Shown: piece after piece, positions 49,618-52,012 of the stretch
Numbering within the stretch: position 1 is the first letter of the stretch
How the letters are laid out: the number at the start of each line of letters is the position of its first letter
NCBI GenBank assembly: GCA_945879065.1
Contig: CAMCUU010000002.1
Location: forward strand, 3,543 to 67,542
DNA length: 64,000 nucleotides
Reading direction: 5' to 3'
DNA from: Francisella tularensis subsp. holarctica
Lineage (GTDB): Bacteria > Pseudomonadota > Gammaproteobacteria > Francisellales > CACEW01
Translations under genes and position numbers: made by a program
Notes under the pieces: generated by a model
Seen by the model: the letters and a program-made list of their open reading frames with translations, nothing else
Database searches by the model: none
Told to the model about the DNA's origin: nothing

Positions 49618-50439
49618 TTAAGAAGCTCCTCCTGGGACAGGGGTTGATCCATGGGCTTGTTCAGATGTTTTTTCTTTGTCAGCAACTGGGGCGGCTTGAA
49701 CATAGACCAGATCCATAACAACAGTGGCAGAAGCGCCAGGGCCCCCTGCACCTGCACCTGAACCTGAACCTGAACCTGAACCCGCACCAGCACTTGCAGG
49801 CTCATCCCGTTCATCACCCTCTGCCTCTCCTTCAGGACTCTCAGAGAAAAATACGCGTTGGCTCTCCTCAGTCCATAGCGCTTCACTCAGACGATGCAAT
49901 AACACTGAGAAATAAGCCGCGCCTTGTGGACTTTTAATACTTTCCAAATCTGCAGGCTTAATATGGCCATCAATATTTCTAAAAAGCACAAAGCCCGGAG
50001 CTCTGTATCCCTTTATTATTTCTAAAATTGCCGCCTCATAGGCTTCATACAAGGGCACAAAGTTGCGACCTGCGACGCTTTTTGGAGAGACTGATTTCCC
50101 CTCAGCGTCAGGCTCACTAAGGAACTTATGGGTTAAACGATTTAATTGCCCAGCCAGCTTGTAGGCGAATAAATAATTAAAAAATTTATTCTCTGCCGTA
50201 GCGCCGTATGACAAGCTATCCAATGCTTTTTTTAGTTCTTCAAAAAGCTTTGTTTGCAAGCCATGTTCTGGTAAAGAGCCAGTAAACCAAGACAAGAGCG
50301 CTGCACCAGTACCTATAGGGTCCAACACACACTCAGTCACAGATTTTTGCGCAAGGGGATTCTTGTAAGCGATCACAAAATCTTCGAAGGCTTGTTTCAA
50401 GCCTTCGACCATGACATCAATGGGCGTTACTCCTGACAT
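49618..50439 (-). CDS. Ala/Gly-rich orphan protein (273 aa), tandem paralog of the 510-aa protein
   Basis: Collinear blocks shared with 50480..52012: LKQAFEDFVIAYKN vs LKAALDVFVTTYAN, QTKLFEELKKAL vs QTELFRNLQAAL, LLHRLSEALWTEESQ vs LLEGLESVCWTAEAQ. Also carries a GSGSGSGSGAGAG tract. Confidence 0.6.
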   Translation of the reverse strand: MSGVTPIDVMVEGLKQAFEDFVIAYKNPLAQKSVTECVLDPIGTGAALLSWFTGSLPEHGLQTKLFEELKKALDSLSYGATAENKFFNYLFAYKLAGQLNRLTHKFLSEPDAEGKSVSPKSVAGRNFVPLYEAYEAAILEIIKGYRAPGFVLFRNIDGHIKPADLESIKSPQGAAYFSVLLHRLSEALWTEESQRVFFSESPEGEAEGDERDEPASAGAGSGSGSGSGAGAGGPGASATVVMDLVYVQAAPVADKEKTSEQAHGSTPVPGGAS

Positions 50440-50479
50440 TAGACGCTCCTTTTTGTTTTCTATTTTTTGCTTTTTATTG

Positions 50480-52012
50480 CTATCTGCGGGCAGCGCACCC
50501 AGAAGATTTTCTAGCTGCCAATTGGGCTAAAAATTCTTTTTCTAATTGAGTCTCTGCAAGCTTAACAGCCCTGGGCTCTGGCATTCTGCGATCGCTTTTT
50601 AGAATTTTGCTCACTCTAGAAGGACGGTTTTGTTCCAAAAAATCTTGTAGCTCTTTCTGCTCTTGCCTGGTCAGAACGACTGTCTTTTCACCTGCTTTTC
50701 TGACTTTCGCAGCTTCTGCCGCTTTAAGCGCTGCTCGCAGCATTAAATCAGCCTGTTGTGCCGTCACTTTTTCTTTTGGCGCTTTTGGCTTTTTAGCTCC
50801 TGAAGCCGCCGCTTCGGCGACAAAAGGTGCCGCAGCGGCAGCCCCTACAGCAGCCATAGGCGTGTCTACTGGAGAATTAGCTGGCGTCACTGTCAATGCG
50901 ACATCGAGGAGAAACTTTCGTCTAACAGGCGTGAAAACTAAAGGTGAAGAAGAAGCAGTAAGCGCAAGCGCTCCTTCCTGAGACTCATCTACTACTAGTA
51001 AGCATGGTCCTAAAAATTGGTTGATCACCCTTTGCCAAGGATCCAGATTCACCAACGCCACTGAAGCTTGACCTTGAGGAGTTACTTCTGTGATAACAGA
51101 GGCCGCTGTGCCTTTGTCTTCCACAATTTCAACCCTTGATCTACTTCTTTCTGAGTCAGCAAATCTTGCAGGAACAGCCGAACCTAAATTTCTTAAGAAA
51201 CTAAGAGTATCCCCATCCAAAAAGAGATCGCATATTACCGGAGCATGAGGAGAGGCAAGGTGTTTCACGGTCAGCTGGCCAGGAACAAAAGCCAAATTTA
51301 ACCCCCTTGGAATACCACCTGAAATACCCGCAGCAACAGCTCGGCAGAGGGCTTTCATATCAGGAGATTTTGTATTCTGACAAACGACCTCCGCCAATGG
51401 TGTTGCACCCTCAGGTGCTGCACGGCCATCAGCGACGGCAGATCCTGTCTTCAAAAGAAATAAAGCATCGCCAGTACAATCAGAAGCAAATTTTGCTTGG
51501 GCTTCAGCTGTCCAGCAGACACTCTCTAAGCCTTCGAGTAATGCTAAAAATTGGCTTGCTATTGGATTCTTAACATCAGGAATAGCGCTGGCAAGCGACG
51601 CGTCAGTCAGCTGTGTATTGATTTTATCTGTTAACACACTGACTAAATGTTCTGAAAAGGCTTCCGCTAATGTTTTATAAGCCGGCGCAAAACTAGTACC
51701 AGAATCAACAGCCGTCCCTGTCACTTTCGTATGTAATTTTCCAACTAAAACAAAAGCTGCTACTAATTTAAAAAATTGAGCCCTGAGGTCATAAGAAGCA
51801 GCGCTTGTATTTAAAGCTGCTTGAAGATTTCTAAATAATTCAGTTTGAGGAGCATGATGGCCACTCCGGTCCAAAGAAGCTGACCAAGCAGCAGGTGAAA
51901 GCCAGCTCCCACTAGCTGCATTGGCATAAGTTGTTACAAAAACATCCAAGGCCGCTTTTAATTTCCCAACCAATTTCGCATTAATAGAAAACCCTGCTCC
52001 AGACATACACAC
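50480..52012 (-). CDS. Ala-rich orphan protein (510 aa)
   Basis: It is the only long ORF in a GC-rich stretch. The N-terminal 190 aa are paralogous to the 273-aa protein, and the C-terminus is a Lys/Ala-rich helix. Confidence 0.6.
   Translation of the reverse strand: MCMSGAGFSINAKLVGKLKAALDVFVTTYANAASGSWLSPAAWSASLDRSGHHAPQTELFRNLQAALNTSAASYDLRAQFFKLVAAFVLVGKLHTKVTGTAVDSGTSFAPAYKTLAEAFSEHLVSVLTDKINTQLTDASLASAIPDVKNPIASQFLALLEGLESVCWTAEAQAKFASDCTGDALFLLKTGSAVADGRAAPEGATPLAEVVCQNTKSPDMKALCRAVAAGISGGIPRGLNLAFVPGQLTVKHLASPHAPVICDLFLDGDTLSFLRNLGSAVPARFADSERSRSRVEIVEDKGTAASVITEVTPQGQASVALVNLDPWQRVINQFLGPCLLVVDESQEGALALTASSSPLVFTPVRRKFLLDVALTVTPANSPVDTPMAAVGAAAAAPFVAEAAASGAKKPKAPKEKVTAQQADLMLRAALKAAEAAKVRKAGEKTVVLTRQEQKELQDFLEQNRPSRVSKILKSDRRMPEPRAVKLAETQLEKEFLAQLAARKSSGCAARR

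Follow-up and report, generated by a model that had tools for sequence, protein, structure and literature searches.

The 64,000-nucleotide stretch analyzed here, which we refer to as the window (contig CAMCUU010000002.1 of assembly GCA_945879065.1, positions 3,543 to 67,542 of the forward strand, deposited as Francisella tularensis subsp. holarctica), carries on its minus strand, at 49193-52080, a three-gene unit in which two adjacent orphan paralogues, the large and the small gene, are followed by a gene of the DUF1289 family. Our analysis indicates, with a probability of roughly 85%, that this unit is a hypervariable allelic cassette that is swapped by recombination, and that the elevated G+C content of its orphan pair is driven by amino-acid composition. 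The hypervariability is the most interesting property of the locus. Hypervariable loci amid near-identical DNA mark the genes that are under the strongest selection by hosts, phages or competitors, and here this signature falls on a protein family without a detectable relative in domain, structure or defence libraries.

The cassette was compared with that of a strain of the same species, represented by contig L003 and the independently assembled L004, with which the window shares a region of about 21 kb at about 99% DNA identity. Within this region the proteins encoded by topA, aroQ and accB are 100% identical between the two strains, that of accC is 99.8% identical, the DUF155 protein and a 489-aa ATPase are 99.6% identical each, and the transaldolase encoded by tal, the gene upstream of the cassette, is 98.2% identical. 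The identity falls to 84% in the DUF1289 protein, to 49.6% in the large protein and to 39.6% in the small protein. At the DNA level, the large gene aligns to L003 only over its first 185 nt (about 88%) and not beyond, and the two short islands that can be aligned within the hypervariable tract (Table 1) are 86-91% identical. The number of synonymous substitutions per synonymous site (dS) is at least 1 in the cassette compared to 0.2 in tal, and the alleles are therefore far older than the split between the strains. The divergence is graded in both flanks, through tal on one side and the DUF1289 gene on the other, which points to replacement of alleles by homologous recombination. Chimeric assembly is unlikely to explain this contrast, because the window is 100% identical to L001 over 7.9 kb and L003 is identical to L004, so that each allele is present with its flanks in two assemblies.

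Further genomes extend this pattern beyond the single strain pair. The five clade-I genomes carry five different allele pairs, with small proteins that are 42-60% identical and large proteins that are 51-61% identical, compared to 91-98% for tal. In addition, a block at 50828-50374 has no match in L003 but shows 88.7% identity to L002, which belongs to a different species (92% DNA identity in tal). This block takes in the basic C-terminal module of the large gene, the intergenic spacer and 65 nt at the start of the small gene, and such mosaic sharing indicates repeated rather than single exchange. Recombination is thus anchored in the conserved flanks and 5′ ends, with alleles being both replaced and shuffled. 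The extreme divergence is also found in the folded part of the proteins, since the identity of the N-terminal domain (N-domain) is 40-57% where that of the flanking proteins is at least 97%. The ratio of nonsynonymous to synonymous substitutions (dN/dS) in this domain is 0.20-0.54, and as it is below 1 the genes are under constraint; both open reading frames (ORFs) are intact in all lineages sampled.

That the two orphan genes are tandem paralogues with divergent C-termini had been proposed in a first-pass annotation made from the sequence alone, and several independent comparisons agree with it. The N-terminal parts of the small and large proteins match in BLASTP with an E value of 9e-10 (27% identity over 196 columns). 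A profile of the small orthologues detects the large ones (1e-6 to 1e-13), as does a profile of the large orthologues the small ones (1e-10 to 1e-17), and HHalign pairs residues 8-203 of the small protein with residues 10-179 of the large protein at 98.4% probability (E 5.5e-15). In a neighbour-joining tree of the N-domains, the five small orthologues group with 100% bootstrap support and the large ones with 67-83%. Because the small and large orthologues group separately, the duplication predates these five lineages.

The pair has no match in Pfam at E values up to 1, which was also the case for all 14 members of the family, and no significant match in NCBIfam or PHROGs. No PADLOC family was matched at E values up to 0.1 by the large, small or DUF1289 protein, and sequence profiles of the Protein Data Bank (PDB) gave no significant match to the N-domain or to the large protein. 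Similarly, Foldseek searches of both structural models against the PDB, and of the large model against BFVD, returned nothing significant; the best matches, at E 0.29-0.49, were to designed helical bundles, polyprenyl synthases and BAR domains, and these were treated as noise. The 14 family members were recovered by HMMER in a complete search of 1.84 billion cluster representatives, and word-indexed searches of 5.8 billion clusters gave 3-4 matches each. There were no relatives in the GTDB species genomes, which were scanned with the large-protein alignment, nor in the viral contigs of IMG/VR, and the JGI metagenomes contained only two loci, both already in our set. The other Ala/Gly-rich orphans of the window (29814-30761, 17902-18381, 20368-20844, 54924-56972 and 31044-32567) match neither the N-domain nor the C-terminal module in hidden Markov model searches. 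The pair is an orphan family limited to a small clade of uncultured freshwater gammaproteobacteria, and the first-pass description of its function as unknown held up in these homology and structure searches, which gave no known family.

The three minus-strand ORFs lie in series at 50480-52012, 49618-50439 and 49193-49612. For the first of these the ATG at 52006, giving the N-terminus MSGAGF, is most likely the true start rather than the GTG at 52012, because the GTG sits inside the Shine-Dalgarno sequence GGGGAG and all homologues begin with MSG; the protein, initially described as 510 aa long, was corrected to 508 aa on this basis. The conserved region upstream of the large gene contains TTGAAT (52072-52067), a 17-nt spacer, TGT+TTTTAT (52052-52044), the 5′ untranslated region and the Shine-Dalgarno sequence (52017-52012), which reads GAGGAG or GGGGAG across the lineages. 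From the consensus only, the TTGAAT and TGT+TTTTAT elements are predicted to act as the promoter of the cassette. An intrinsic terminator of tal with a 9-nt loop, seen by direct folding and missed by a consensus scan for promoters and terminators, is predicted to separate tal from the large-small-DUF1289 operon. In L002 and L087 a gene with an SLFN_AlbA_2 domain is inserted after tal, and the upstream block of about 75 nt nevertheless remains with the large gene.

Within the unit, folding of the 40-nt spacer between the large and small genes gave no terminator. The small gene ends with the TAA at 49620-49618, followed by the 5-nt sequence ATATT (49617-49613) and the ATG of the DUF1289 gene at 49612, in agreement with the 5-nt distance reported earlier. 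Across six lineages this gap measures 5, 5, 5, 5, 16 and 16 nt, and an AGGAG motif in the final codons of the small gene is kept in five of the six, which probably accounts for the conserved ending of the small protein (...PGAS/PGAF). The coupling of the small gene to DUF1289 suggested in the first pass is thus plausible as well as conserved, and co-transcription of all three genes with coupled translation of DUF1289 is well supported by conservation of the predicted signals. An A/U-rich hairpin at 49139-49168 is a possible weak terminator that would close the operon.

The position of the cassette was examined in nine lineages, including the window. On contigs that are long enough, the family members are found downstream of tal, upstream of DUF1289, or both, and an exhaustive search gave one locus with two copies per genome. 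The order tal, optional insert, large, small, DUF1289 is present in L002, L003/L004, L005/L006 and L087; in L007 and L089 two family members lie between tal and DUF1289, in L088 tal is followed by P0014, and in L090 a protein bearing the C-terminal module is followed by P0013 and then DUF1289. The DUF1289 gene comes after the pair in every lineage whose contig extends that far. Outside this conserved unit the order is less stable, as L007 lacks the AAA/ATPase_2 neighbours and L005 has them in a different order. Insertions are tolerated between tal and the cassette: a gene encoding SLFN_AlbA_2 and HATPase_c_4 domains occupies this gap in L002 (2425-3816) and L087 (585-1973), and a SEC-C/YchJ-like Cys-rich gene in L007 (8970-9440). 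The question raised in the first pass, whether these could be vertically inherited core genes, has a divided answer: across nine lineages the locus always sits between tal and DUF1289, whereas the alleles at this position are swapped by recombination, a hypervariability that the first pass had overlooked.

With respect to the flanking genes, the exact tal protein has no entry on record; its product is 79% identical to that of the nearest named genome, a metagenome-assembled genome (MAG) labelled 'Thiotrichales bacterium'. The accC protein is closest to the enzymes of Haemophilus, E. coli and Pseudomonas, which places the organism in the gammaproteobacteria. Beyond the clade itself, the tal protein (52157-53134, minus strand) is 54-60% identical to enzymes from Chlamydiota and Verrucomicrobiota MAGs, above other gammaproteobacteria. 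This similarity hints at an old transfer, with the reservation that peptide patterns derived from the query bias which relatives are retrieved.

The base composition of the pair had been described as much higher in G+C than the backbone, and as a special contrast to the adjacent DUF1289 gene. G+C is indeed elevated, at 0.467-0.469 in the small gene and 0.460-0.461 in the large gene against a mean of 0.397 (sd 0.044) for 50 ORFs of the window, but the extent of the difference was overstated, since eight other ORFs of the window have values of 0.44-0.48. The whole excess lies in codon positions 1 and 2: the small and large genes have 0.58 and 0.57 at the first position compared to a mean of 0.47, and 0.46 and 0.49 at the second compared to 0.37, while third-position values (GC3) of 0.365 (small), 0.318 (large) and 0.329 (DUF1289) are close to the window mean of 0.356 (sd 0.039). 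When the expected G+C was calculated from each amino-acid sequence and the synonymous codon preferences of the window's other genes, the values were 0.472 for the small gene (observed 0.469), 0.487 for the large gene (observed 0.461) and 0.328 for DUF1289 (observed 0.321). Ala, Gly, Pro and Arg together make up 31-33% of the pair and 14% of the DUF1289 protein. As the expected G+C matches the observed, the contrast between the small and DUF1289 genes is an amino-acid effect and gives no evidence of foreign origin; the compositional contrast did not survive as a special feature of the locus.

These values also bear on the idea that the pair is a recently acquired, G+C-rich foreign island that has become joined to a native A+T-rich DUF1289 gene. 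The raw figures would fit such an event, with 0.46-0.47 in the pair against 0.32 in DUF1289 and about 0.40 in the window, but GC3 near the mean, the agreement of expected and observed G+C, the eight equally G+C-rich ORFs and the same position in nine lineages all argue against it, and we consider it very improbable. A general lesson is that amino-acid composition alone can create a G+C contrast between adjacent genes, and that the real evidence for horizontal exchange at this locus came from the comparison of strains and not from base composition.

The large protein is predicted to consist of three parts, namely the all-alpha N-domain that it shares with the small paralogue, a disordered middle and a basic C-terminal module (Table 1). 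In the AlphaFold2 (AF2) model, which like that of the small protein was built on a 7-sequence alignment, helices extend over residues 4-188 with a predicted local distance difference test score (pLDDT) of about 70-87, residues 178-413 are below 50, and the C-terminal helices reach values of up to 90. The last 105 residues (from residue 404, a little more than the module itself) have a net charge of +13 and a pI of 10.4; the charge is +9 to +11 in the orthologues and the pI is about 10 across the large proteins. In contrast, the tails of the small orthologues have charges of -4 to -10. The model of the small protein shows an all-alpha domain at residues 6-198 with pLDDT mostly 65-89, and values below 50 from residue 201. 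Invariant or near-invariant positions of the N-domain are, in the numbering of the small protein, L14, A17, F21, Y25, G54, H59, Q62, L69, L73, A92, G124, F127 and W189, and short conserved motifs are present in the tails of both proteins, LLxxGSAVADGRAAP in the large and an ATVV(M/L)D(L/I)(V/L)-like motif in the small. We found no signal peptide or transmembrane segment in either sequence.

The C-terminal module is conserved in L002, L003, L005, L087 and L007 and weakly conserved in L088 and L090. The first-pass annotation had described an Ala-rich extension of about 300 aa, gained by the large protein and ending in a Lys/Ala helix. The extension is present, at about 330 aa, and it does contain a Lys/Ala-rich helical module, but its richness in Ala is not special, as Ala accounts for 16-18% of all three parts of the protein including the N-domain. 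The suggestion that it was gained is not borne out, because the module is old, being present in the distant lineages L007, L087, L088 and L090, and its loss from the small paralogue is equally possible. Two readings of the tails were dropped: a CaaX box at the large C-terminus (...SSGCAARR), in which the Cys lies at position -6 and lacks conservation in both L003 and L005, and an interpretation of the tail motifs as encapsulin or microcompartment cargo peptides, for which there are no shell genes nearby.

The large and small proteins begin with MSGAGF and MSGVTP, respectively. Only four proteins of the window start with Met-Ser-Gly, all encoded on the minus strand (starts at 52006, 50439, 56972 and 32567), and each of them is a lineage-specific orphan that contains low-complexity regions; the same start is also found in family members from other lineages. 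This N-terminus may be a shared N-terminal signal or processing site, which we regard as a lead and not as a recognised translocation signal.

The third gene is a genuine member of the DUF1289 family, matching PF06945 at E 6.2e-16 with 58.4 bits (cut-off 27) over profile positions 1-45 of 47. Its product has four N-terminal Cys residues in a CxGxC...CxGC motif at residues 5-50, TPCIGICSTVYGDEVCRGCKRRF, a motif that is also present in L007 and L090, and a lineage-specific C-terminal extension of about 90 aa.

Such low-complexity proteins could in principle come from spurious or decaying ORFs, and the pair does show hexanucleotide repeats and long stretches of low complexity, with no known domain. 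Against this, each lineage sampled has intact copies of both ORFs although the proteins diverge by 40-60%, their N-termini, core residues and Shine-Dalgarno motifs are conserved, dN/dS is below 1 and AF2 predicts a helical domain for both, so that we give this possibility almost no weight. Overlapping or antisense ORFs of 63-124 aa at 49602-49886 (minus strand), 49724-49915 (plus strand) and 50607-50981 (plus strand) have low-complexity translations such as (VQ)n and (PE)n, and were rejected as genes; they are by-products of the Gly/Ala-coding repeats.

The layout of the large protein suggests a further reading by analogy, in which the pair would be a housekeeping scaffold or nucleoid system with an oligomerising N-domain, a linker and a C-terminal module that binds nucleic acid, and the small protein a truncated modulator. 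The divergence would then reflect weak constraint on disordered proteins together with one chance import from another species. A domain layout like that of H-NS or PopZ, the consistently basic C-terminal module, the single locus per genome at a fixed position among housekeeping genes and dN/dS below 1 are all compatible with such a role. We nonetheless judge it unlikely, because no H-NS or DNA-binding family was matched in Pfam, NCBIfam or the PDB, the folded N-domain is as divergent as the rest (40-57% against at least 97% in the flanks), and all five clade-I genomes carry a different allele pair, with the mosaic sharing pointing to repeated rather than single exchange.

The explanation that we favour for the hypervariable cassette, although tentatively and at somewhat less than even odds, is that the two paralogues cooperate and face a host or phage antagonist under diversifying selection, with DUF1289 as their partner. 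The large and small proteins would work jointly, probably as a heteromer formed through their paralogous N-domains, and the basic C-terminal module would tether this complex to a polyanionic partner, for example nucleic acid or an acidic membrane. Short binding motifs would reside in the disordered tails. The antagonist would most likely be a eukaryotic host, making this an effector-like pair, and otherwise a phage, and by favouring rare alleles it would maintain very old allelic lineages. The DUF1289 protein, a small four-Cys protein produced from the shared mRNA, would serve as constant partner or as cofactor-binding subunit. We rank a host-facing role slightly above a phage-facing one because the proteins combine an orphan helical domain with long disordered low-complexity regions and have no enzymatic domain, an architecture typical of effectors and PE/PPE-type proteins and atypical of defence systems. 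If the pair does face a host or phage, it would constitute a new family of conflict proteins and a marker of strain-level diversity for these organisms, as well as the first functional association for DUF1289/YdhL.

Several points weigh against this interpretation. The within-species contrast rests on one strain pair, dN/dS does not reach 1, saturation of the sequences precludes the detection of positive selection, and the confidence of the AF2 models is moderate (mean pLDDT 61 and 53, from 7-sequence alignments). The heteromer, the partner of the C-terminal module and the role of DUF1289 are inferences, there are no secretion-system genes among the 64-kb window and the short related contigs, and the neighbouring genes include candidate defence ATPases, which favours a phage-related alternative.

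According to that alternative, the pair would be an anti-phage or conflict module, a new two-gene system for defence or sensing that owes its diversity to an arms race with phages, and it would lie in a defence hotspot between tal and DUF1289. The ATPase encoded two genes further downstream (46333-47802) is a match to PDC-S27, a candidate system of PADLOC (E 1e-170), the AAA gene beside it has weak PDC-S01 and AbiEi matches, the SLFN_AlbA_2 and HATPase_c_4 gene is inserted at the same spot in L002 and L087, and extreme within-species turnover of alleles is typical of defence loci. Yet PADLOC has no match for either protein, both lack enzymatic and nucleotide-binding domains, disorder is predicted over more than half of the large protein, and there are no relatives in viral contigs. 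Moreover, the pair is fixed in nine lineages while the ATPases come and go, so that the two do not form an obligate unit. On balance, a defence module is a doubtful alternative.

A more speculative possibility, which we hold to be quite improbable, is a single-locus 'identity' cassette of paired, co-varying helical paralogues, of a kind not recognised before, in which negative frequency-dependent selection would keep ancient alleles, recombination would reshuffle their modules and the four-Cys DUF1289 protein would act as partner. Strain or kin recognition and the determination of host specificity are possible roles of such a cassette, and if this were true it would provide the first functional context for the widespread DUF1289 family.

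Table 1. Features of the cassette and its flanks, and DNA identity of consecutive window segments to L003
Feature	Position	Strand	Details
Terminator of tal, intrinsic	52097-52127	-	7-bp G+C stem then U8; RNA fold -13.6 kcal/mol, z -2.8
Conserved region 5′ of large gene	52007-52080	-	Near-invariant in five lineages
Large paralogue, 508 aa	50480-52006	-	ATG 52006; orthologues P0002, P0003, P0008
Large protein, all-alpha N-domain, aa 1-178	51473-52006	-	Common to small paralogue
Large protein, middle, aa 179-413	50768-51472	-	Mildly acidic, Ala/Gly/Pro/Ser-rich, predicted disordered
Short conserved island in disordered middle	51394-51474	-	LLxxGSAVADGRAAP
Short conserved island in disordered middle	51306-51362	-	
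Large protein, basic C-terminal module	50483-50767	-	Three predicted helices, aa 416-439, 447-471, 477-502
Large/small spacer, 40 nt	50440-50479	-	A-rich, unstructured; Shine-Dalgarno AGGAG 50450-50446
Small paralogue, 273 aa	49618-50439	-	Orthologues P0005, P0009, L002:5193-6167
Small protein, N-domain, aa 1-200	49840-50439	-	
Small protein, acidic disordered tail	49621-49839	-	
Imperfect hexanucleotide repeat, CCTGCA x9 (+ strand)	49745-49798	-	Encodes (Gly-Ala/Gly-Ser)n linker of small protein
Small/DUF1289 junction	49613-49633	-	AGGAGGAG at 49633-49626, inside final codons of small gene
DUF1289 protein, 139 aa	49193-49612	-	Third gene of operon; Pfam PF06945
A/U-rich 12-bp hairpin then U-run	49139-49168	-	z -2.1; weak evidence
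Segment compared with L003	40412-48800		99.2% DNA identity
Segment compared with L003 (DUF1289 and downstream)	48801-49606		88%
Hypervariable tract	49607-51820		No alignment to L003 except islands of 57 and 81 nt
Segment compared with L003 (large 5′ end and tal 3′ half)	51821-52800		93.7%
Segment compared with L003	52801-59400		98.9%

The comparison with L003 also revealed a second hotspot of divergence at 59646-61118 (minus strand), where the gene product is an orphan membrane protein of 490 aa that is multi-pass and has a (DNP)5 repeat at its N-terminus; identity to L003 is only 74% in protein and 85.5% in DNA, and the adjacent amidohydrolase is 99.6% identical. A 682-aa orphan at 54924-56972 (minus strand; L003 5006-7069), one of the four that begin with Met-Ser-Gly, has (Gly-Ala)n runs at both ends and degenerate motifs that resemble a histidine-kinase ATPase and a receiver (weak NCBIfam match, E 0.03). 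Its N-terminal Gly-Ala run is two units longer in L003 (AGAGAGAGAG compared to AGAGAG), a repeat-length polymorphism between the strains.

Elsewhere in the window there are five AAA/ATPase_2 (PF01637-type) paralogues, at 46333-47802 (minus strand), 18840-20288, 20893-22512, 27939-29450 and 47940-49121, of which the 489-aa one is the PDC-S27 match and a 482-aa one has a PD-(D/E)XK nuclease domain. A palindromic unit of about 55 nt forms two arrays (27791-27922 and 47814-47921) of two copies each, with 80-86% matches, and each array adjoins an ATPase_2 gene; the array at 47814-47921 also aligns with itself in inverted orientation at 78% identity. This arrangement suggests a small mobile or regulatory repeat that may travel with the ATPase genes. 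Perfect hexanucleotide arrays are prone to in-frame slippage, and one such array, CTCCAG x10.7 with 100% matches at 17961-18024, encodes (Gly-Ala)n in the 159-aa orphan at 17902-18381. A paralogous 158-aa orphan 2 kb away (20368-20844) has a shorter array at 20435-20466, and both genes flank ATPase genes. Finally, the region 23709-25714 may hold the remnant of an integrated element: a gene for a serine recombinase (resolvase), at 24064-24684, has tRNA-Ser (23709-23796) on one side and the RNase P RNA gene (25349-25714) on the other.

Among known systems, the mycobacterial PE/PPE proteins, including PE_PGRS, share several features with the pair, being encoded by adjacent co-transcribed genes and combining a conserved helical N-domain of about 100-200 aa with a highly variable, Gly/Ala-rich low-complexity C-terminal part; they are likewise restricted to a single lineage, fast evolving and without a classical signal peptide. 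However, none of the 14 family members has a PE (PF00934) or PPE (PF00823) match or motif in Pfam at E up to 1, the N-domains here are paralogues of each other, and each genome has two copies at a single locus, compared with more than 100 members in the mycobacterial family. The organism is also a Gram-negative gammaproteobacterium without a known ESX system, and no ESX genes are present in the 64-kb window. Effectors of the Dot/Icm system of Legionella and Coxiella resemble the pair in being lineage-specific, in having no known domains, in combining helical bundles with disorder, in rapid turnover between strains and in lacking a Sec signal, but here there is no evidence of Dot/Icm, of another translocation system or of a host; a structural echo of Legionella LpiR1 in Foldseek (E 2.9-5.2) was not significant.

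H-NS with its partners H-NST and Hha offers a parallel in domain layout, in that the long protein has a helical N-domain, a flexible linker and a basic C-terminal module and the shorter paralogue has the N-domain only. Profiles and structures gave no homology to H-NS, MvaT, Lsr2 or Hha, the N-domain here is much larger, H-NS is not known for such hypervariability, and the observed features that bear on DNA binding by the large protein are the charge and the predicted three helices of its C-terminal module. With regard to the third gene, the DUF1289/YdhL family (PF06945, COG3313) is to our knowledge a widespread but uncharacterised family of four-Cys proteins, of which the cassette gene is a true member with the CxGxC...CxGC motif; it differs in its C-terminal extension of about 90 aa and in its translational link to the paralogue pair. 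In an overexpression screen for oxidant resistance, the gene table lists E. coli ydhL with no annotation beyond 'DUF1289 domain-containing protein' (PMC8228696).

The behaviour of the locus is most readily compared with that of polymorphic cassettes such as cdiA-CT/cdiI, the rhs tips, O-antigen and capsule loci and Borrelia ospC, in which the 5′ part and the flanks are conserved, the rest cannot be aligned and the flanks are graded. The pattern of contact-dependent inhibition (CDI) and Rhs loci, a conserved 5′ part with a 3′ part replaced by recombination, is found here too, the likeness being one of behaviour only. The cassette differs in having no toxin domain (Pfam, NCBIfam, PDB and Foldseek) and no immunity, glycosyltransferase or lipoprotein features, and neither a signal peptide nor a lipobox; its downstream gene is a paralogue of the upstream N-domain and not an unrelated immunity gene. 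The locus as a whole resembles PE/PPE pairs and swapped polymorphic cassettes in its behaviour but could not be placed in either group, and only its third gene belongs to a known family. Hypervariable allelic cassettes that are maintained by recombination are known, and what is new is the orphan protein family from which this one is built.

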